DNA of 64,000 nt. Origin: a virus (lineage: Duplodnaviria > Caudoviricetes). The translations under genes and the position numbers were made by a program. How positions within the stretch are numbered: position 1 is the stretch's first letter; every line of letters begins with the position of its first letter. Of this stretch, positions 13,298 through 42,222 are shown one piece after another. Below the pieces are notes generated by a model, which saw only the letters and a program-made list of their open reading frames with translations, made no database searches and was not told the origin of the DNA. The DNA lies in IMG/VR virus record IMGVR_UViG_3300044557_000104, positions 1 through 64,000 of that record; one strand, written 5' to 3'.

Positions 13298-13909
13298 CTA
13301 GCAACTCTTATGAATATCCTCAATACCAATATGATTTGGTTTATAATCCACATTGAATAACTTAGAAATATTTTCTAGTGAAACTCCACCGGGATTAATC
13401 ATCTCACTAATAGTCCGCTCAATGTCTTGTAACACCACAGGAACAATTTCGTCACTGCTATGATAAAGTGACTTAGCCTGTTCATTAAATGTCTTTACAT
13501 CAGTGTTAGCTCCATATGAAATAATGGGTGATCGTTTAATCTTATCCCGTAGTACCCAAGAACTAAACTTAGTAAATAAATCATTGTAATTACGTGATCG
13601 TAAGATATCTAATGGAATCCCACATTTCTTTACTGTATTAACTGTATTAGAATCTTTAACTCTAGGACTCATCACCCACATGTTAAATTGATCTGTCTTT
13701 TTACCTTTTTCATAGTACTCTGCTGAAATATTTACTGGAACCTGTGCTGTTTTATTACTACTAATATTTTCTGTAGCATATTCCATATCCACAATTGTGT
13801 AGTTCGTCATATGGTCTAATGTTACTGTTTCCATCGGTGTTGATAATAGTTTTGCTGTTCTTACTGTTTTCAATATAAATACCCCTTTTCCATAGTTATA
13901 TATTACCAC
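13298..13909 (-). pseudogene. DEDD 3'-5' exonuclease-like gene, C-terminus displaced by IS insertion (last 14 codons and stop at 11761..11805)
   Basis: VDMEY (ExoI), YG.NTD (ExoII), H.G.ED (ExoIII); in-frame continuation YINALIKSIKKARG* beyond the element. Confidence 0.7.
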
Positions 13910-20877: not shown

Positions 20878-22908
20878 TTAAATGTCTAATAGCTTAATAA
20901 TATCATCCTTAGTTACCTTGCGAGCATCTAGTTGGTGAATATGTTCTGATGCTACACCATCTGGAATCTCATCTGCTGAACTAACGATATTAGCATCTAC
21001 AATTTCAAGGACTTCATTAAGAGATGGTGTATGAGTACTCTTAAAGTCTAATACATTAATAGCATTGTCTACAACATTAATATCAGGGTCTGGCATATGT
21101 CCTCTACCAAAATCATGATTAGCCAAGATAACCTTTAACTTCCCGTCTGCCTTAGGAATCACTACTGCAAAGATTTTGGCATCTCCGTCTGCTTTAGTAA
21201 AATCAGTAGTGCTAGTAATTCCCTTTCGTGATAATGTGGCTAGGATTCCACTTGGGTCATCAATTAGATGCTCTACTGATTGCTTTTGAGAAGTGTCTAT
21301 AAAGTACTTAGCATTTTCACCATTATCACCATAATCATATAGCTGGGTAATTACAGGTTTATTTAACCCCTGCTTAATTCGGTAGGCTTCCGTTGCGTAC
21401 CCATATTTATTAGTATCAGTCATGTCACCAGAGAAAGTAATTGACTCTCCCTGATCTATTCCATTCCACCCATAATGGGTTCCATCAACATCAAACAAAT
21501 GTAAATCCAGATCAGAGTGAGTTGTCCATGAGACACCTAAAACAATATCTGATTGGTAATCAAGACTTGACATATATGGGATGTTACCCACAAAAGTTTT
21601 AGCTGATGTAGGGAAAGCATAAGTCAAAAAGTCATGTTGTGGGAAAATGAAGTAGTCCCCAGAATATTTACTAAACCGTTTTCTTAACTCATTGCTAATT
21701 AGTGTATTAGCAATTTCTCCACTTGAACGGTTATAATCAATTCCTCGATACTCATTTCTCTTCATCCAAGACTTACCATTGCGAATGTTATAAATAGAAT
21801 ATTTTGGTAAATCACCATTAGATCGGTATTTAGTGATACCTTGTAATGCTGTCACTAACTTAAAGGTACTTGCATTTTTTAATGCCTTTTTAAAATTCTC
21901 ATCTTTACCATGAATTACCCTATCATAATTTTCTCGCATATAAGTTACTACGTCATTCATAATAGGTGTTTTACGAGGAAGATAAACCTTCTTAGCTTGC
22001 TTCATAGCTCGATTGATAACCGACTTATTTTTCAGGAACTTACGGATTACTAAATATATCTTTTTGTAACGCATAATATTCATAGCCATAGAGTTAGTTC
22101 CATAGATAAAAGCATAACGGTCAATATAATCTTCGATTTTATTAGCTTTACCTTCATCAACTTCTATTTGATCTAGGGCATCACGAGTTTGTTTGTTATT
22201 AACTAGTAAGGTGCTACCAGTTGCTGTGTACACTAATAAGCGAGTAAATTCATCAAAGTTTTTTGGAACGATTCTGAACTTATCAGATAAGATCAGTTTC
22301 AATTCTTTATTCTTAATATCATCATAGATTTTATAAAGATCAATTGAACATCTGTCACTTAATACCTCAGCTACATCTACAAGAGCTTCAATATCTTCTT
22401 CTGATAGTGCAATATTAGCATGAAAACTATCAATCAACATAGCTGGTAACTCATCAGCAGTGATAGGATTGATATAGGTTAATGATTCTGCGAAGTCTAA
22501 TGCAGTGTCTAAGTCTAGCGTTTGAGGTTCATAAATATCACCAGAATTACGTAATCCTTCAATGCCACCATAAGTTGAAGCATAGTGGGCACACTGAATT
22601 AAGAAACGTTCTAGTTCTGACATTTGTTCTGCTTCATCAAACGATTTAAACAGTGTTGAGTTAGCTTCAAATCCATTAATCCCATAATTAGATTTAATAT
22701 AATCAATTACACTATCTAAAACTAAGGAATTTCCAGATAAGAATCTAATGGTACTAGGATCAATAAATACACCAATCCCTAATAGTCGCTTTGAAAAACT
22801 TTCTGCAATCTCAGATGATCTTTGTGGCTTGTCTGATACCAGTACACCTTTATATAAATGTAGCAAGTCTAATTGAAACTTAATTCCTTTTTGTGCTTCT
22901 GTGATCAT
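20878..22908 (-). CDS. 676-aa protein with C-terminal TerD-like domain (Rot / Ro60-TROVE-like + TerD family candidate)
   Basis: Large helical N-terminal part; C-terminal GVSW...DLDLH...GWN...FSGDMT TerD-like motifs; family recalled, not searched. Confidence 0.6.
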   Translation of the reverse strand: MITEAQKGIKFQLDLLHLYKGVLVSDKPQRSSEIAESFSKRLLGIGVFIDPSTIRFLSGNSLVLDSVIDYIKSNYGINGFEANSTLFKSFDEAEQMSELERFLIQCAHYASTYGGIEGLRNSGDIYEPQTLDLDTALDFAESLTYINPITADELPAMLIDSFHANIALSEEDIEALVDVAEVLSDRCSIDLYKIYDDIKNKELKLILSDKFRIVPKNFDEFTRLLVYTATGSTLLVNNKQTRDALDQIEVDEGKANKIEDYIDRYAFIYGTNSMAMNIMRYKKIYLVIRKFLKNKSVINRAMKQAKKVYLPRKTPIMNDVVTYMRENYDRVIHGKDENFKKALKNASTFKLVTALQGITKYRSNGDLPKYSIYNIRNGKSWMKRNEYRGIDYNRSSGEIANTLISNELRKRFSKYSGDYFIFPQHDFLTYAFPTSAKTFVGNIPYMSSLDYQSDIVLGVSWTTHSDLDLHLFDVDGTHYGWNGIDQGESITFSGDMTDTNKYGYATEAYRIKQGLNKPVITQLYDYGDNGENAKYFIDTSQKQSVEHLIDDPSGILATLSRKGITSTTDFTKADGDAKIFAVVIPKADGKLKVILANHDFGRGHMPDPDINVVDNAINVLDFKSTHTPSLNEVLEIVDANIVSSADEIPDGVASEHIHQLDARKVTKDDIIKLLDI

Positions 22909-22938
22909 AGTTGTATACCCCCAAGTATAATAAAATTA

Positions 22939-22971
22939 AGACCCCTCAACACATAATATGCCAAGGGGTCT
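22939..22971 (-). terminator. terminator/attenuator hairpin between leader RNAs and the 676-aa gene
   Basis: AGACCCCT/AGGGGTCT stem followed by TAATTTTATT on - strand. Confidence 0.6.
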
Positions 22972-22981
22972 CCGTATGTAC

Positions 22982-23108
22982 AGAGTACGAGACGTAGTAC
23001 ATATCCATAGTAGTTTAAATGGGAACGCCTTTGTGTACTCTTTTAGGTTGACGAGATGTAATTAAATAAGTTGTTTGTAAGTTAAAATAGGAACACCCTT
23101 GTGCCAAC
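22982..23108 (-). ncRNA. two tandem ~60-nt structured RNA repeats
   Basis: Units 23108-23047 and 23041-22982 share CACAA(G/A)GG.GTTCC.ATTT.AACT ... TAC.TCTCGT with different closing stems and variable loops. Confidence 0.75.
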
Positions 23109-23120
23109 TCTATGGTTCAT

Positions 23121-23149
23121 AGTATATCATAGTATTATTCATTTGTCAA
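23121..23149 (-). promoter_or_regulatory. sigma-A promoter for tandem RNAs and the 676-aa gene
   Basis: TTGACA-17 bp-TATACT with extended TG. Confidence 0.85.
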
Positions 23150-23156
23150 GTTATTT

Positions 23157-23690: not shown

Positions 23691-23913
23691 GTCTCTTACC
23701 CCACACTAGTAGACTATTCTTATACTCCCAATACAGTACTCTACGAAATCTAGTGTTTCCATTATGCTTGGATTTAGGTTCTGCACTTAATTTGTGCTTT
23801 AATTTTTTACTATAGTTTTTCCACAGGTGCATCTTTGGCAGATCTTTGTAGGAATAAACATCCGTCCATTCATCAAACCACTCATAATATTTATTCACTT
23901 GTCGTTTATTCAT
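23680..23913 (-). CDS. small basic hypothetical protein
   Basis: GGAGG RBS; overlaps neighbours by a few nt. Confidence 0.65.
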   Translation of the reverse strand: MNKRQVNKYYEWFDEWTDVYSYKDLPKMHLWKNYSKKLKHKLSAEPKSKHNGNTRFRRVLYWEYKNSLLVWGKRHGK

Positions 23914-24289
23914 ATTTTATGTCCTCCACATCGAATGATACACACATGTGACTATTACGGTTGATTTGTGCTTCCTCTAAGTCTAACAATCTTGATGGAT
24001 ATAATGCTAAGTCTTCAATTCTAGGATCACTAACCTTATAGGTGATGCTAGTTGTTTCAAAGTTAATGGTGATAGACTTAGCATCTTTTTGTAGCAATAG
24101 ATCATTCTCACGACAACTTTTGTAAGTTAAATATAGTCTGTCAAACTCAAATTCAATGCTATTTACTCTAGATAAGGTAAACTCTTGGTCATCTGTTTTT
24201 ACCACAATAGATGTAATACTATCATTCAAATCTTGGTCATAATCAAACATTGGTTGATTGCCCCCTTTTCCATATAAAAAGCATACCAC
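23906..24289 (-). CDS. hypothetical protein
   Basis: ORF; likely start at internal MFDY after GGGGG RBS. Confidence 0.7.
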   Translation of the reverse strand: MVCFLYGKGGNQPMFDYDQDLNDSITSIVVKTDDQEFTLSRVNSIEFEFDRLYLTYKSCRENDLLLQKDAKSITINFETTSITYKVSDPRIEDLALYPSRLLDLEEAQINRNSHMCVSFDVEDIKYE

Positions 24290-25135: not shown

Positions 25136-26557
25136 CTGCTACATAAATCTTATAAAAACCTACTAAGCATAGTTTTATTTACTTAATAGTTAGTATCTTT
25201 ATAAGTATTTATTTACCTTCGTCATTACTAGTATTCTGACTATTATCACAGAGACAATAGCCACATTGACTAGCTCTTAAGGCTTGAGGGAGTAGCCTTC
25301 CCCTTTCATTGGATTCCCTCAATTAAATTAACTGTAATAAGTTTTGTACTGCGTTTTCATCTCTATCTATGATAGCCCCACAATTGTAACAAATATACTC
25401 ATTATGTTTAGTATGGTGTTTCTTATTCCCTTGAAGGGTTATTCTATCATCACCTTGTTTAACATTACCACATTCTGAGCATCTTTGTGTGCTAGGGTAA
25501 AACTTATCTGCTAATACTAGTCTCTTTCCATACCAATTACACTTATAGGTTAAACACTGTCTAAAGTAGCCAAACTGGGATCTTTGTAGTCCTTTAGAGG
25601 CTACATGGCTCATTTGCATATGCTTAACATCTAAGTCTTCAATACCTATAGTGTCATAGTTAGATACTAGTTTTGTAGTAAACTTATGAATAATATCATG
25701 TTGTACATTAGTTACCTTAGTATAATCACGTTGAAGTTTGGTTCTCACTTCTTGATAATTTATACTTCCATGTTTCTTTCTTGACAACATTTTTTGATAA
25801 TGCTTGATTCTATCATAGAGCTTAGCTAAACGTTTCGGTAGAACATTACAACTACCTTCTGTGTAATTCAAGTGTCCAACATTCACATCTACTGCTGTAC
25901 TCTGATTGGTCTTAGGTTTGCTAGGAATATCCTCTACTTTATAGGGAATAGAGGCATAATATTTACTATTGACTCTATAGATAGAGATGGTACCATAATC
26001 ATAATTTAGGAGGTTACCCCTTACTTTAATATCATACCAAATAGACTTATTATCTCTAGGCTTATCCAGCCTAAGTTTGCCTTTAATAAACTTAATTCTA
26101 TCTGATTTAAACCCCTGTCTAGGAGCTTTCTTAGACTTAAATTTGGGCTTGCCCCAATCAGGTAATGACTTATCAAAGAAATGCTTCCAAGCATTACCTA
26201 AGTCAGAAATTCCCTGCTGTAGCACTCTAGCAGACAGAGCATACTGCCAATCTTGCTTGTTAGCTACTAAGTAGTCTCTAACTTTATATTCACTAGGGCT
26301 AGGATTATTATCTTTATCTAGTAAGTGCAAATTATACATCTCATTCCATGCTTCTAAGCCTAGATTCCAACAATACCTTCGATAGTCACAAAGCCTATCT
26401 AATTCCTTAGTCATATGGCTATTAGGGTATAACCTAACTGTTATTGTTTTTACATACACTATTCTCACCTTCTTTCCAGATAATAACAGTGTAGCATACT
26501 TAATAGATATTATCAAGTTTGTAGACTATTTTATAAATAATTAGTTACAGTTCACAG
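25136..26557 (-). mobile_element. non-autonomous IS607-like (tnpB-only) element
   Basis: No end hairpins; LE GCTGTGAACTGTAACTAA and RE ...TTTATAAGATTTATGTAGCAG resemble IS607 ends; AG dinucleotide at both junctions; no serine recombinase gene. Confidence 0.65.
25323..26516 (-). CDS. tnpB: RNA-guided endonuclease TnpB (IS607-type)
   Basis: VRLYP HTH, RYCWN, PKFKSKK; RuvC D (AVDVN), E (IEDL), D (DRDENA); zinc finger; likely GTG start near 26459. Confidence 0.93.
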   Translation of the reverse strand: MIISIKYATLLLSGKKVRIVYVKTITVRLYPNSHMTKELDRLCDYRRYCWNLGLEAWNEMYNLHLLDKDNNPSPSEYKVRDYLVANKQDWQYALSARVLQQGISDLGNAWKHFFDKSLPDWGKPKFKSKKAPRQGFKSDRIKFIKGKLRLDKPRDNKSIWYDIKVRGNLLNYDYGTISIYRVNSKYYASIPYKVEDIPSKPKTNQSTAVDVNVGHLNYTEGSCNVLPKRLAKLYDRIKHYQKMLSRKKHGSINYQEVRTKLQRDYTKVTNVQHDIIHKFTTKLVSNYDTIGIEDLDVKHMQMSHVASKGLQRSQFGYFRQCLTYKCNWYGKRLVLADKFYPSTQRCSECGNVKQGDDRITLQGNKKHHTKHNEYICYNCGAIIDRDENAVQNLLQLI

Positions 26558-36115: not shown

Positions 36116-36535
36116 GTGAGTAACCGTTTAATTGATGGAATTAAAAATGAGATTGATGATACTAAAGATGAAACTACCATTACTAATGTTAAAAAGACTA
36201 TTGAGTTATTATCAGGTCGGTTACTGCAACAGGCATCAGAGGGTACCATTGATTTAGATATTAAAGATTTAAAAGACCTAACGTCAGTTCTAGCTATGTT
36301 GAAAGATTCTGGTGAAGATAATGGCCAAATGGGTACTCCACCTGTAAGTGGTAGGATGACTGTTTACTTTAACTCAGCTTTAAATGGTCAGAAAGATAAC
36401 CCAGAACAATCTGATGATGAAACCGATATTAGTCAAGGCTTGGAAGATATGTCTGAGGAAGATGTCAACAAAATGCTGAATGCTCAGTTTGAAGAACAAA
36501 ACAAAGAAAACTTTGACAAAAATAATGAAGCGTGA
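36116..36535 (+). CDS. putative terminase small subunit
   Basis: Position before terL; acidic helical protein of typical size. Confidence 0.6.
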   Translation: MSNRLIDGIKNEIDDTKDETTITNVKKTIELLSGRLLQQASEGTIDLDIKDLKDLTSVLAMLKDSGEDNGQMGTPPVSGRMTVYFNSALNGQKDNPEQSDDETDISQGLEDMSEEDVNKMLNAQFEEQNKENFDKNNEA

Positions 36536-36745
36536 TATACTATAATCAAGTTGATAGATAAACCTTTTACATTATAATATCGTGCTAATTAAGTCATAAT
36601 CTTATCTATTAACCTAGTAGTAATACTTGTTGGAGCAGGTGTTACTATGAATTGTGGCAGGTATTCAATCGTTAAGATACTTGGCATTTTTGAAAACTCC
36701 TTTTTATTGATTGCAGAGAAGAGACTGTGTGAGGTCTCTTTTTTG
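36513..36745 (+). ncRNA. sRNA unit 1 (promoter + hairpins + anti-RBS segment + terminator)
   Basis: TTGACA-17-TATACT; CAT-TTTTGAAAA-CTCCTT at 36685-36702; AGAGAC/GTCTCT terminator plus T tract. Confidence 0.7.
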
Positions 36746-36762
36746 TTTGCCTGAATAAATAG

Positions 36763-36909
36763 TTGACAAAACATTTAATTCATGCTATTATAGTACTTGT
36801 AGATGAGTAATATCATCTACACTTGCTGATTTTCATGATGTTTGTTTTCAACCTATTTATATTTTTCCTCTACTTTGCCTTCCCCTTGTGTGCAATGTAG
36901 AGGTTTTTT
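36763..36909 (+). ncRNA. sRNA unit 2
   Basis: TTGACA-17-TATTAT; 5' hairpin TGTAGATGA/TCATCTACA; pyrimidine-rich tract with CAT; CCTCTAC/GTAGAGG terminator plus T6. Confidence 0.7.
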
Positions 36910-36918
36910 GTGCTATAA

Positions 36919-37091
36919 TTGACATTTTAAACAGATCATGATATTATATGTACATGGTAGGATGTTAATACATCTCATAGGGGTAAACCGCATACTACCT
37001 ATGAACTACCATTACAACTCATGGTTGTATACCTCCTTTTCCATAATATAGTTTACACTGCGGTTGGTATCCCACTTGGGGTACCTTTTTT
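36919..37091 (+). ncRNA. sRNA unit 3
   Basis: TTGACA-17-TATTAT; branched 5' hairpin; CAT-GGTTGTAT-ACCTCCTT at 37020-37038; GGTATCCC/GGGGTACC terminator plus T tract. Confidence 0.75.
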
Positions 37092-37153
37092 AATACTGTG
37101 GTGTTGCTATATTATAAATTACAAACAAATAAGTAACAGAAAGGATTGATAAA

Positions 37154-40100
37154 TTGAATGGTAAACAACTAGATTCTATGATTAGAGATACCTTTAATCT
37201 GGGGTCTAACGATCCAATTACACCAAAGCAATTGAACTATGTAATGGGACTAATGGTACCTTCTAACTACTTGTTGCAGAACCATACTATTGATGGTAAG
37301 CCAGTGACTTACAACATTCCTAACCGTAATGAGAATATGGCACGAGGACATCGACCTTGGCAGGTAGATATAATTAACGATATGAGTAAAAATTTGGTTG
37401 TTATCAAAGGTCGCCAAATGGGTTTAAGTGAAGTTGGTATAAGTCAAATGATATGGTTCGCAGATACACACTCCTATGACCACGTGAATTGTCTATATGC
37501 TTTTCCTAAGTAAGATGTGGGACTTTTAGGAGCAATCCTAATTGAAAAACTCTGTTAAACGGGCATAGCCAAGATAACTACTATATAAACAATAGGCTGG
37601 TAAGAAAGACTAAATCCCAATAGTAGGGGACAGAGTTAATCACCGTAGTAAATCAGTATTGTATTCGATACTGTAAATCTCTAGAGACTAAATTTCTAGG
37701 TAGCTACTAAAATGGTAGTAGTAAGAACTAGATAAGAAAAATTTTAACAGAGGTAATCAATATGCCTAAATTTAAGACACAAGATGAATTTATAAATGAT
37801 GTTTATGCTAAATATGGTGATCAGTTTTCTGTTATTGGAAAATACGTTAGAAGTACTACTCGTGTAAGAATTAAGTGTAATGTATGTGGATATACATTTG
37901 ATGCTATGCCAAATACTTTGCTCACTAGAGGACGAGGTTACAAATGTAAGAAGTGTCTGATGAGTAATCCTAATTATGCTAATGAAGTATATAAGGAGTA
38001 TAATGGTAAATTTTCTGTTTTAAGTAGTTACAAGGGTTGTGATACACCTGTTTTATATAGATGTAATGTTCATAATAAGGAGTTTAAAATGAAACCAACT
38101 TCCTTTAGAAGATCAAATTTTAAATGTCCTGTATGTAAATATAACCACGCTACTGAAAAGCAGAGAAAAACAGACACCCAATTTAAGTCAGAGTTGAATA
38201 AAGCACATCATGGTAGAATAATTGCGCTTGATAAATATGTTAACACACATACTAAAATAAAATTCAAGTGTACTGTATGTGGAAGTGTATTTTGTACTGA
38301 GCCAAATGCTGTTTTGAGAATTAGCGGATGCCCAAAGTGTTCTTATAGTACTGGTGAAACTATTATAAAAGACTTGTTTGATGATGAAGGTATTGATTAT
38401 GAGTCACCAAAGAAGTTTCCAGATTGTGTATATAAAAGGCAATTGCATTTTGACTTTTACCTAGAAAAGTATAACCTTCTTATTGAATTTGATGGGGAAC
38501 AGCATAATAAAGCTGTTGACTTCTTTGGTGGGGAGGAATACTTAAAAGATTATAAAATACGAGATAGTATTAAAAATGAATATGCTATTAAAAATAATAT
38601 TAATTTAATGCGTATACCATATATTAGAGATAAAAATGAAGTTTGCAAAATAATAATGAACTTTATTAAATATAAATCATCAGATTACCTTGTTAATAAA
38701 TAAGTAAAGCAGAGACTCTTATACCAAAAGTTAAGAGTAAGAGATAGTCCACTCCCTAAATAAATATTGGGAAACCAAGGGTATAAAGAACATATAAGCA
38801 AATGAACACATTCTACAAGCAACGTCTAAAGCCTGAGTTTACATCAGGTGGGTATTATAGTAGTTTGGTAGATGAAAAGCATGGAATGTCTATGGATCAA
38901 ATGAACATTAGAGATTCGTCAGTAACATTCCGTACATCAAGTAAGGGAGCAAGTCTTGAAGGACTCAAGGTTGACCTTGCTTCGTTGGATTTATAATAAG
39001 TCCAGTATTGTAGTAATATAATAATATAAACACTGTTAAACGGGCATAGCCAATATAACTACTATATAAACAATAGGCTGGTAAGAAAGACTAAATCCTA
39101 GTAGTAGAGGGCAGAGTTAATCACCGTACTAAATTAGTAGAAATACTATACAGGTCTAACGACTATCGAACAGGGAGTTAATTAAATGGAATTAACAAGA
39201 CTTAGTAGAGTAAAACTCATAGTAATATGAGAGGAAAAGCAGTGAGTCCTACACCAAAAGGTAGGATTAAGAGATAGTCTAAACCCTAAATAAATATTGG
39301 GAAACCAAGGGTACTAATTGGAATATGACAGATTGAGTCCTTTAGCTGAGCAATCAGCTATTCAATCAATGGCATCATCTAAGTATCAATTACTAAGAAG
39401 ATGGTCAACGCCTACAACAAGCCACTATGGTATCCACAAATTGTTTGAACAATCAGATCAACGATTCTGGACTCATAAATGCCCACATTGTGGATATTGT
39501 CAAGTAATGGATTATGATAAAAATATTAAACTTCTTAATAAAGATGGTATTGATGTCATTGGTAAAAAAGTATACCCTGGAACCTTTCAATATGTTTGTC
39601 AGAAATGTGGTAAGCCACTAGACAGATGGTATGACGGATTTTGGGATATTACATCACCCGGTGATGGTGGTCGTGCTCATGGGTACTCACTATCACAAAT
39701 GGACTGTGTGTGGATCAGTGCTTCAAAACTTAAAGAATCTGAAATGAATGCACCAAGTAAATCATACTTCTACAACTATAGTTTAGGTCGCCCATATCAA
39801 GATGATAGTTTATCCTTTAAGAGTGCAGATGTTTATTCTCACATTGCAGACTATGATCGTCCATTTGATAGAAGCAACTACACCCTAGTATCCGCTGGAA
39901 TTGATTGGGGTTAAATCTTAGCTCCACTATAGAGTAATCTATAGGAAAATAAAACACTGTTAAACGGGCATAGCCAATATAACTACTATATAAACAATAG
40001 GCTGGTAAGAAAGACTAAATCCTAGTAGTAGAGGACAGAGTTAATCACCGTAGTAAATCAGTAGTATAATAAATACTGTAAATCTCTAGAGACTATCGAA

Positions 40101-42222
40101 CAGGGAGTTAATTAAATGGAATTAACAAGACTTAGTAGAGTAAAACTCATAGTAATATGAGAGGAAAAGCAGTGAGTCCTACACCAAAAGGTAGGATTAA
40201 GAGATAGTCCAAGCCCTAAACAAATATTGGGAAACCAAGGGTATAAACTGGAGCACAATCATACCCTTACCATAATGGGAATGACTGATTCTGGTAGAAT
40301 TGATTTTATGCACCTCAAGGAAATTCCAAGAGCATTAGGTGCTGAGCATATTGAGGAAGACTTAGATATGGTTGTTAGAACCCTTAACCAGTTTGCACCA
40401 GATATCATAATTGCCGATAGAGGATTAAATTAAGTCCCGTACAGAAGTAATTCTGTATGTAAAACCATGTTAAACGGGCATAGAAAAATAGCTACTATAA
40501 AAAACAATATTCTGGTAAGAAAGACTAAATCCTAATAGTAGAGGAAAGAGTTAACCTACCGTGCTAAATCAGTATTATAATTAATATTGTAAAAGCCTAG
40601 AGACTAAATTTTTGGATAGCTATACAAACAGGTGTAGTGAAAACCAAATAAAAGCATACCTTTCTATATTATAAGTATATGGAAATTATATTTATAAACT
40701 TGGAAGGTGAATTGCATTACTAGAAGACGAACGAATGAAGAATTTATTGCTGAGGTTAAAGAACTTGTAAATGACGAGTACACCTTTCTAGACGAATATG
40801 ATGGTGTTTTAACTAAAATTAGAATTAAACATAATAAGTGTGGTCATGTGTACCTTACAACACCTAATTCATTTATTAATGGTGGTTCAAGGTGTAATAT
40901 ATGTAAGTCAAAAGAAGCAGGTATAAAGAAAACAAAGGATACAGAATGGTTGAAGCAAGAAGTATATAAAATAGCAGGTGACGATTATTCTGTTATCGGT
41001 GAATACCATATGGCCAAATATAAAGTAAAGCTAAAACACAATGTCTGCGGAAATACTTTTGACATGACAATAGGACATTTTAGGAGTGGTGAACGATGTC
41101 CAAGGTGTAGCTATAAGAAGCGTGCTAAGCAAAGAATGAAGACCCAAGATGAATTTAAAAGAGATGTATTAGATACATTAGGCCCTAAATATACAGTTAT
41201 AGGAGAGTATAAAGGGGATTCCATCCCTGTAGAAATAAAGCATTCATCCTGTGGAAAATCATATTTTGCCATTCCCTCCGCAGTTAAGCAGAGGTCAAAC
41301 ACATGTCCTTATTGTAGGCCATATCATGGGGAAGAATTTATAATGAATTGGTTAGACCACAATAGCATTGACTACGAAGTTCAAAAGAAGTTTTCTGATC
41401 TACGTGATTCTAAACCCCTAAGCTATGATTTCTTTATTCCAAAGGATAAGATACTGATCGAATATCAAGGGGTACAACATTTTAGACCAACTACGCATTT
41501 TGGCGGAGTACCCAGATTTAAAGTTCAGAAAAGACATGATGATATAAAGAGAGAATATGCAGTAACTAATGGGTACACCCTAATAGAAATTCCCTATACT
41601 TATAAGTCATATGAATCAATAGCAACGTTTTTAAGTAATGCAATAAATGTGTAAAGCATGGATACCATACCTAAAATTATGGTATAAGATATAGTCCAAA
41701 CCCTTAATAAATACTAGGAAACTAGGGGTATAAATTGTTAATGGTAATTATGTGGACAAACTCATTAAGTACTATGGTGAAGGAAGAGTATATGGTTGCA
41801 TTGTTAGATCGGCTAAGACTAATAATGATCCAATAGCTCACTTCACTAATACTGATGTCACCATAGATAAGTTGACACAAAACCTAATTATGTTGTCAAA
41901 CCTCAAACGTGGAGAGATTCATTTCTGGAGAGGGTCAGAACGGGATAAAGATATTAGAACATTAATTGCTCATTGGAGTAATGTTGTATTTCGTACTGAT
42001 GAAAAAGAAGATCCAGATACTCACGAGATTGGAACGCAACAGGTTATTCTAAGAAAAGGGCCAGATCATGCAGCTCAGAGCCAATGTTATGCAAATGTTG
42101 GTCTTAATAAGTTAATGCACGACTATGCAGAACGTAATAGTAATAAGACTGAGGTTTCATTATTGAGTACTGATCTAATTGCACCAGAAAAGACCTCTAT
42201 TCAACGTGAATATGATCTATAA
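37154..42222 (+). CDS. terL: terminase large subunit, 5 exons (37154-37507, 38790-38990, 39321-39911, 40251-40425, 41738-42222; 601 aa spliced)
   Basis: RPWQ, KGRQMGLSE, YAFP|TYKQM, SLD|EYD (Walker B), WSTPT, IDWG|EHNH, ADRG F NGNY, GPDH; exon lengths sum to 1806 nt. Confidence 0.92.
37508..38789 (+). mobile_element. group I intron 1 of terL with homing endonuclease ORF
   Basis: P1 U-G wobble (TCCT/GGGA), core GAGACTA / GATAGTCC (P7), shared 5' core and 3' tail with introns 2-4. Confidence 0.9.
37762..38703 (+). CDS. intron-encoded homing endonuclease (Zn-ribbon repeats + Vsr-like/PD-(D/E)xK domain)
   Basis: Repeated C..CG...CP.C units; FDFYL...LIEFDGEQH...K..YA..NNI.L.RIPY. Confidence 0.85.
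   Translation: MPKFKTQDEFINDVYAKYGDQFSVIGKYVRSTTRVRIKCNVCGYTFDAMPNTLLTRGRGYKCKKCLMSNPNYANEVYKEYNGKFSVLSSYKGCDTPVLYRCNVHNKEFKMKPTSFRRSNFKCPVCKYNHATEKQRKTDTQFKSELNKAHHGRIIALDKYVNTHTKIKFKCTVCGSVFCTEPNAVLRISGCPKCSYSTGETIIKDLFDDEGIDYESPKKFPDCVYKRQLHFDFYLEKYNLLIEFDGEQHNKAVDFFGGEEYLKDYKIRDSIKNEYAIKNNINLMRIPYIRDKNEVCKIIMNFIKYKSSDYLVNK
38991..39320 (+). mobile_element. group I intron 2 of terL (ORF-less, 330 nt)
   Basis: P1 TGGAT/GTCCA; ends in G; splicing joins Walker B D|E. Confidence 0.92.
39912..40250 (+). mobile_element. group I intron 3 of terL (ORF-less, 339 nt)
   Basis: P1 TGGGGT/GCTCCA; ends in G; near-identical to intron 2. Confidence 0.92.
40426..41737 (+). mobile_element. group I intron 4 of terL with homing endonuclease ORF
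   Basis: IGS ATTAAGTCC pairs with ligated GGAT|TTAAT; ends in G; internal late-promoter motif at 40664. Confidence 0.92.
40707..41654 (+). CDS. intron-encoded homing endonuclease (same family as 37762)
   Basis: H..CG...CP.C repeats; YDFFIP...IEYQGVQH...KREYA. Confidence 0.85.
   Translation: MNCITRRRTNEEFIAEVKELVNDEYTFLDEYDGVLTKIRIKHNKCGHVYLTTPNSFINGGSRCNICKSKEAGIKKTKDTEWLKQEVYKIAGDDYSVIGEYHMAKYKVKLKHNVCGNTFDMTIGHFRSGERCPRCSYKKRAKQRMKTQDEFKRDVLDTLGPKYTVIGEYKGDSIPVEIKHSSCGKSYFAIPSAVKQRSNTCPYCRPYHGEEFIMNWLDHNSIDYEVQKKFSDLRDSKPLSYDFFIPKDKILIEYQGVQHFRPTTHFGGVPRFKVQKRHDDIKREYAVTNGYTLIEIPYTYKSYESIATFLSNAINV

Follow-up and report, generated by a model that had tools for sequence, protein, structure and literature searches.

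The 618-nt gap that separates the genes of the small and large terminase subunits (terS and terL) in a herellevirus-like phage, IMG/VR virus record IMGVR_UViG_3300044557_000104, contains an array of three units, each with its own promoter and intrinsic terminator and without a conserved open reading frame (ORF). The record is 118,436 bp long, and the stretch analyzed here, called the window, is its first 64,000 nt; positions count from the first letter of the window, and G000 marks coordinates of the full record, including the part beyond the window. The array is a real feature and not a chance pattern. The units are read here as three independent small RNA (sRNA) genes on the + strand with predicted products of ~205, ~114 and ~139 nt, the third of which would act in trans to repress two genes of the phage itself, and to this reading we give an even chance. 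Unit 3 is nearly invariant among relatives, it carries the antisense of a complete gene start, and its two longest matches in the whole genome are gene start regions.

Architecture of the Array

In all three promoters the -35 box is perfect, 17 nt separate it from a TG-extended -10 box, and 11 of 12 bases match the sigma-A consensus (Table 1); a fourth promoter-like site with 11/12 matches lies at 36551, within unit 1. Sites of this strong class number 17 in the 118-kb genome, both strands counted, and four of them fall in the array, within 430 nt. Loose promoter-like sites (at least 9/12) show no local enrichment, with 13 found and 11.8 expected in a 2.5-kb region. At the sequence level, each unit has the layout of an sRNA gene, that is, a promoter and an intrinsic terminator of its own bracketing 80–250 nt. 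A sequence-only reading of this DNA had proposed promoters at 36513, 36763 and 36919, anti-start segments at 36685–36702 and 37020–37038, and one intrinsic terminator per unit. The promoters and segments were all found in the same places on re-scanning, and the terminators were recovered too, T3 as the only one detected by a simple terminator scan and T1 and T2 by folding.

The predicted folds of the units have z-scores of -2.5 to -4.5 and share one layout, in which 5′ hairpins are followed by an open pyrimidine-rich stretch and then by the terminator hairpin with its U run. Unit 1 has a variable 5′ part with a long-range stem (36550–36561 with 36603–36614), a central hairpin (~36620–36652) and a conserved core, and unit 2 has a 5′ hairpin (36798–36821), a U/C-rich single strand and then T2. 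In every unit a C/U-rich seed is exposed: the segment complementary to the Shine-Dalgarno sequence (anti-SD) lies in an open stretch of unit 1 and is single-stranded in unit 3, and the motif of unit 2 lies in the terminator loop. The seed of unit 3 is unpaired from the anti-SD onward, and its 5′ end, with the CAU and the arm that pairs with the spacer, is inside a hairpin at 37012–37029; folding places the CAU in the loop, as had been proposed.

In the 85 kb that form the block of + strand genes, the antisense of a Shine-Dalgarno sequence (SD) followed by 5–10 nt and ATG is found at two places, both of them in the array. The anti-SD hexamer alone has five copies in this block, two of them in the array. 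This is ~0.06 copies per kb and amounts to strong avoidance on the sense strand of the block, which runs from 33386 to the end of G000.

Conservation and Modularity

The spacers between terS and terL were aligned for 14 relatives, contigs from public assemblies (Logan, ENA) whose TerS is >90% identical. Unit 3 is the most conserved segment of the region: four of its 139 sites vary, compared with 38 of 140 third-codon positions in terS (Fisher P = 5e-9), 13 of 103 flanking non-coding sites (P = 0.004) and 97 of 270 sites in terL. The 32 nt of its seed, spacer included, have no variable site, and the unit keeps 98.6% identity even where that over the first 270 nt of terL is no more than 71% (67% as protein). 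Units 2 and 1 are both less constrained, with 9.6% and 16.5% variable sites, respectively. In unit 1, the anti-SD and the CAU are fixed, and the spacer that joins them has two alleles of 9 and 10 nt. The promoter hexamers together with the TG vary at 3 of 45 sites, compared with 15 of 42 in the intervening spacers (P = 0.001).

The content of the array differs among relatives, in line with the modular cassette suggested by the sequence-only reading, and modularity of the units is supported by these alignments. Three relatives have unit 3 alone, in a terS-terL spacer of 239 nt, another has an additional promoter unit upstream of unit 1, and in a further one (L030) a TnpB element is inserted into unit 2. 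In L025, unit 1 is followed by other modules and by a Dps/ferritin gene (PF00210; L025:1606-2106) with a promoter module of its own, which replace units 2 and 3.

Two kinds of element that recur in these phages were seen in the course of the comparison. A TnpB/IS605 OrfB gene (25323-26516, - strand) adjoins a match to the Rfam Transposase-1 RNA (25222-25282, - strand); related TnpB genes are those in unit 2 of L030 and upstream of terS in L024, which indicates that the element is mobile in this phage clade. Furthermore, an element of ~45 nt stands upstream of several genes (G000 ~79760-79805 and 104700-104745). It has a stem of 8 pairs, in which the copies co-vary, and a loop of 4 nt, and is possibly an RNA hairpin with a mobile or regulatory nature. 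In the relatives L025, L026, L036 and L037 it is found within the extra modules next to terS and before the gene for a 676-aa protein described below.

Outside this group of relatives, blastn against 50,697 phage records gave matches within terL only and none to the array, protein searches with TerS in phage records and IMG/VR gave nothing, and neither did exact-pattern scans for units 1 and 3 in IMG/VR, JGI metagenomes and GTDB genomes. In 15 more distant herelleviruses that were checked, terS abuts terL, and no array and no promoters are present there. Since the junction in these phages shows neither spacer nor promoters, the array is, on this comparison, an insert specific to the lineage.

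Absence of Conserved Coding Potential

The alignments support a non-coding nature of the array units. Mechanical ORFs of 25–42 aa are present on the + strand (35, 25 and 42 aa), none of them is conserved, and they were rejected as genes; the sequence-only reading had seen no sense ORF. The + strand ATG at 36647 in unit 1 is ACG in five relatives. The 25-aa ORF of unit 2, which is hydrophobic, has no SD and is frameshifted by a 1-nt indel in L024 and L029, and it was rejected as well. The minus strand of unit 1 has the 32-aa ORF beginning MPSILT, whose conservation had been named as a sign against an RNA function; nearly all relatives carry a 1-nt deletion that leaves four codons of it, and it too was rejected as a gene. 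A type I toxin-antitoxin system was also considered and rejected, given that there is no conserved small hydrophobic ORF with an SD and that the ORFs of unit 1 are broken too. Unit 3 has a 7-codon ORF on the minus strand, to which decay of the reading frame does not apply as a criterion, unit 3 being invariant.

Predicted Targets of Unit 3

Contiguous pairing of any part of unit 3 was searched against the whole genome. The two longest matches, of 18 and 17 contiguous pairs, share one register and both fall on gene starts, that of the gene of a 676-aa protein and that of the gene of a 207-aa protein labeled as Gad2 family. The start of a 114-aa gene is a possible third target. In a control that kept the anti-SD and the CAU fixed and randomized the 8-nt spacer, with 127 start regions as the search space, the probability of at least 18 pairs was 0.0013 and that of two sites with at least 17 pairs was 0.0005. 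Energies for the start regions were computed in windows and corrected for accessibility, unrestricted duplex folding having yielded over-long and meaningless duplexes. The three start regions reach -21.4, -20.0 and -18.4 kcal/mol and the next one -12.8 kcal/mol, and the three thus stand apart from the other 124.

The match of unit 3 ends just past the start codon, which fits masking of the ribosome-binding site (RBS) better than a copied gene end. The sites in the two main targets are identical in the relatives, and that of the 676-aa gene is the same in L036, L037 and L038 despite a different upstream leader. Between the two sites there are two transitions, and pairing is retained through G-U in both. 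For unit 3, these results agree with the earlier suggestion of sRNAs that silence phage or host mRNAs in trans, for which a search of each seed against the full phage genome had been named as a check. The proposal that defence genes might be the targets was not supported for unit 3: those predicted are the phage's own genes and not host defence genes.

The 676-aa protein is one of a family widespread among phages, and its gene lies upstream of genes for an SbcD-like nuclease and a helicase. It has no match in Pfam, PHROG or PDB, even with a profile of 32 sequences. Distant homologues in four 60-kb IMG/VR virus records, three of which are classed as provirus, have no antisense copy of their own start; these records are without the array, and the result is thus uninformative. 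In the 248-nt leader of the gene (22909-23156, - strand), a strong sigma-A promoter of the TG-extended type lies at 23149, a pair of direct repeats of ~25 nt is present, and a hairpin resembling a terminator stands right before the SD; L036 and L037 carry a different repeated hairpin element in place of this leader. A hairpin is also found just upstream of the 207-aa gene, and it shows a compensatory double change in L039. The Gad2 protein of SPbetaL7 is toxic when expressed (bioRxiv 10.1101/2023.05.01.538930).

Units 1 and 2

Among the phage start regions, neither unit 1 nor unit 2 has an outlier target, and of the three units for which the sequence-only reading had proposed targets, only unit 3 has identifiable ones. 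Units 1 and 2 are probably accessory, exchangeable sRNAs with CU-rich or C-rich seeds, and their targets may be host mRNAs. A perfect 17-nt copy of unit 1 (36605-36621) lies on the same strand in a gene-free gap of 379 nt at G000 103534-103550 (L035:535-551). About 0.003 such matches are expected by chance, and no promoter or terminator was found there.

Weighing the Alternatives

Several points weigh against a trans-acting unit 3, and the first is that the support for the sRNAs comes entirely from sequence analysis. Structural covariation is thin: one compensatory pair was found, in the T2 stem, and the other changes are one-sided and wobble-compatible. Seed and targets show no co-variation either, because both are invariant among the available relatives. 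A cruder shuffle of the whole unit gives P = 0.027 for the 18-pair run, and the two targets are alike and hence not independent matches. The lack of an outlier target for units 1 and 2 counts on the same side. As for the second target, its Gad2 label (PF26128) is the precomputed match of a relative >90% identical to the 207-aa gene, and a Pfam search of the 207-aa protein did not reproduce it, giving only a weak nucleotidyltransferase match (poly-A-polymerase-head). Finally, on the minus strand the unit 3 seed, with a -10-like box and a short leader of purines before its SD and ATG, reads like a full member of a class of this phage's gene starts (the same layout is found at 13894, 20830, 24274, 110224 and 117130), and it matches nine of the ten bases of the late-promoter core. 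Inversion of a copied phage gene start is the probable origin of the seed; duplication could have left the complementarity as a mirror image, or it could be the minus strand that has the function.

The units could be real sRNAs of a more general kind, mimics of the 16S rRNA 3′ tail that bind host or bulk mRNAs with a strong SD, the phage matches of unit 3 being a by-product of its inverted gene-start origin. The absence of a phage target for units 1 and 2 suits this explanation, as do a 9-nt stretch of unit 3 that reproduces the core of the canonical 16S tail and is unique in 85 kb, the retention of the anti-SD and the CAU in unit 1 while its spacer changes in sequence and length, and the UCCC-type loop of unit 2, which is like those of LhrC, RsaE and RoxS (PMC4132741). 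However, a generic anti-SD RNA would not need all 32 nt of the unit 3 seed to be invariant, the spacer among them, and both the significance of the spacer match in the control and the distance in energy between the three start regions and the other 124 speak for specific sites. We consider this explanation unlikely.

Strong promoters, with a terminator after each, stand right before the block of late packaging and structural genes and also invite a role in cis, comparable to lambda PR′-tR′/6S RNA or to leader attenuators, in which an antiterminator would permit read-through into terL and the structural genes. The genome has 13 copies of a 9-mer core resembling a late promoter, eight of which lie upstream of + strand genes or gene blocks, and one of the eight belongs to terL and bounds the array. 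This motif of terL itself, downstream of T3 and common to eight late genes or gene blocks, argues against the array as a late-gene read-through switch, and the promoters of the array are of the host sigma-A type, unlike the late-type motif. The lambda PR′-tR′ late antitermination leader, a model in which late genes depend on read-through and have no promoter of their own, was rejected in view of the motif at 37107. Moreover, units 1 and 2 are absent or disrupted by an insertion sequence in relatives, the body of unit 3 is far more conserved than its promoter spacer, which this role would not require, and other herelleviruses do without such an element. A cassette acting in cis therefore seems quite improbable.

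The same low weight is given to a functional minus strand in unit 3, where a phage-type promoter, an SD and the 7-codon mini-ORF, at 37051-37000, would start a leftward transcript. This could provide a leader peptide, or cover units 2 and 1 and terS as an antisense RNA or a sponge. Full membership of the seed in the gene-start class and the nine shared bases of the late-promoter core are what recommends it. Yet the true late motifs extend one more conserved base and lie 42–48 nt from their genes and not 31 nt, no terminator or gene follows downstream, and the next minus-strand gene is 5.4 kb off. A minus-strand function would also leave the conserved P3 and T3 of the + strand unexplained, and the analogous minus-strand ORF of unit 1 is not conserved.

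Packaging (pac) sites typically lie beside terS, and the conserved block, with that position and in a spacer that is an insertion hot spot for TnpB, Dps and other modules in relatives, might be a DNA-level element recognized by the terminase or a remnant of a mobile element without RNA function; this is the least probable of the alternatives, since promoter conservation, canonical terminators and a strand-specific anti-start motif are needs of an RNA gene and not of a protein-binding DNA site, no repeat array is seen on inspection, and debris would not be expected to stay 97% identical across relatives whose terL is down to 71%.

Genomic Setting

The phage is apparently a virulent herellevirus. 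Its nearest cultured relative is Lactobacillus phage LfeInf (Herelleviridae), in which the first TerL exon has 56% identity and terS abuts terL. Phage matches of the endolysin point to hosts among the Lactobacillaceae, e.g., Oenococcus, Leuconostoc, Lactiplantibacillus and Pediococcus, and a search with the endolysin in GTDB genomes gave no match. Phages of this clade occur in food-fermentation samples. The terL gene is split (window 37514-42222), with HNH-endonuclease ORFs at 37762-38703 and 40707-41654 between the TerL-coding pieces, and the intron content at the first terL site differs among relatives. The coordinates of the array, its flanks and the predicted target sites are collected in Table 1.

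Table 1. Coordinates of the array, its flanking genes, late-type motifs and predicted target sites.
Feature	Position	Strand	Remarks
terS (left flank)	36116..36535	+	small terminase subunit, phrog_1063
Promoter P1	36513..36541	+	-35 box 36513-36518, TG-extended -10 box 36533-36541; 11/12 consensus; overlaps terS stop codon
Unit 1 RNA (predicted, ~205 nt)	36548..36752	+	from folding and alifold
Unit 1 anti-start and anti-SD segment	36685..36702	+	anti-SD and CAU conserved; 9-nt spacer variable in sequence and length
Terminator T1	36713..36750	+	14-pair hairpin (36713-36746), then U run, by folding
Promoter P2	36763..36791	+	11/12 with TG; hexamers conserved, spacer variable
Unit 2 RNA (predicted, ~114 nt)	36798..36911	+	fold z-score -4.5
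Terminator T2	36867..36903	+	stem, then U run; C-rich 13-nt loop 36879-36891 with UCCC-type motif
Promoter P3	36919..36947	+	11/12 with TG; conserved in all relatives
Unit 3 RNA (predicted, ~139 nt)	36954..37092	+	present in every relative; 4 variable sites in 139 nt
Unit 3 seed	37019..37050	+	antisense of a full gene start: 5′ leader, SD, 8-nt spacer, AUG; anti-start and anti-SD motif 37020-37038
Terminator T3	37066..37091	+	simple terminator scan (hairpin 37066-37085) and folding
terL late-type promoter motif	37107..37119	+	downstream of T3; bounds the array
terL exon 1 (right flank)	37154..37513	+	large terminase subunit, phrog_9315 and phrog_675
Late-type 9-mer, upstream copies	34205, 37107, 40664, 43877, 46013; G000 84687, 94750, 104478		five lie 43–48 nt upstream of late genes
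Predicted target 1, start of 676-aa gene (20878-22908)	22905..22922	-	18 contiguous pairs, 2 of them G-U
Predicted target 2, start of 207-aa Gad2-family gene (G000 117157-117780; L034:658-1281)	G000 117144-117160		17 contiguous pairs
Possible third target, start of 114-aa gene (23906-24250)	24248..24275	-	weaker; site not conserved in L038

Comparison With Known Systems

In phage T4, two proteins, the translational repressor RegA and the endoribonuclease RegB, shut off the translation of some of the phage's early mRNAs by acting at their SD or start regions. The logic proposed for unit 3 is the same, but the effector would be an RNA. A search of 4227 Rfam models, those of LhrC, RsaE/RoxS and the C4 antisense RNA included, gave no match in the array, the best score being 19.7 bits against a gathering score of 100 (ncr952).

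A close parallel in mechanism is the c4 antisense RNA of phages P1 and P7 (RF01695; PMC12197685), which, as proposed for unit 3, is a phage RNA that pairs in trans with the RBS region of another gene of its own phage and blocks translation. The c4 RNA is processed from a longer transcript of a temperate Gram-negative phage and controls an antirepressor. In contrast, the array RNA has its own sigma-A promoter and terminator and two unlinked predicted targets, and it has no match to c4 in sequence or structure.

In gene arrangement, the array resembles LhrC1-5 of Listeria monocytogenes, sRNA genes that are clustered and have a promoter and a terminator each (PMC4132741). LhrC, RsaE/RoxS, RNAIII and FsrA of Bacillota pair with the SD through CU-rich or UCCC motifs, which lie in loops, in single strands or in the terminator loop (PMC4132741), and unit 2 shares the layout of these UCCC-motif sRNAs. 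The LhrC copies belong to the host, are nearly the same in sequence and respond to a two-component system that induces them, whereas the three units of the array are unrelated to each other, encoded by a phage and equipped with promoters that look constitutive.

Herelleviruses make abundant non-coding RNAs (ncRNAs) of unknown function (PMC10383478, PMC12282133). Staphylococcus phage K has short and long ncRNAs, one of the short ones being proposed to target the mRNA of a prophage baseplate protein (PMC10383478), and Listeria phage CKA15 has three highly transcribed non-coding regions, which according to the authors are without canonical terminators or UCCC motifs and which do not lie at terS-terL (PMC12282133). 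The array has in common with these ncRNAs the phage family, the promoter-driven and ORF-less make-up and a suspected sRNA role, and it differs from them in having specific self-targets predicted.

Proposed Function and Implications

The model predicted from these sequences covers transcription and its timing, pairing in vivo and repression. Host sigma-A RNA polymerase would read each unit from its near-consensus promoter, probably from the start of infection, the closeness of these promoters to the sigma-A consensus being what suggests early transcription, and transcription would end at the intrinsic terminator of the unit concerned. Unit 3 would first contact the SD of the target mRNAs through the open anti-SD, and pairing would then spread through the adjacent 7-pair hairpin (37012-37029) up to the AUG. 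The whole RBS would thus be covered on the mRNAs of the 676-aa and Gad2-family genes, and possibly on that of the third gene, excluding ribosomes and blocking the initiation of translation. Such repression would limit or time the production of proteins that are perhaps costly. Units 1 and 2 would act alike on other mRNAs, possibly those of the host.

A fuller version of this model is put forward tentatively, and we hold it to be less probable than the trans-repression itself. In this version, unit 3 would be an early, abundant antisense RNA that works as a shut-off switch, masking the whole RBS of a Gad2-family anti-defence gene and of the 676-aa early gene and thereby setting the dose or the timing of proteins whose excess may do harm. 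Its place between terS and terL would be a site for exchangeable cassettes, shared with further sRNA modules that are aimed at the host and swapped among related phages.

The regulatory RNAs of virulent Gram-positive phages are nearly uncharted, and this locus offers a concrete and testable pair, a near-invariant 139-nt RNA and two defined start regions. It also bears on the annotation of phages of food fermentation and of therapy. If the model is true, phages would meter their own early and counter-defence genes by trans-acting RNAs and not by proteins alone, and the terS-terL junction would be a landing pad for swappable RNA modules.

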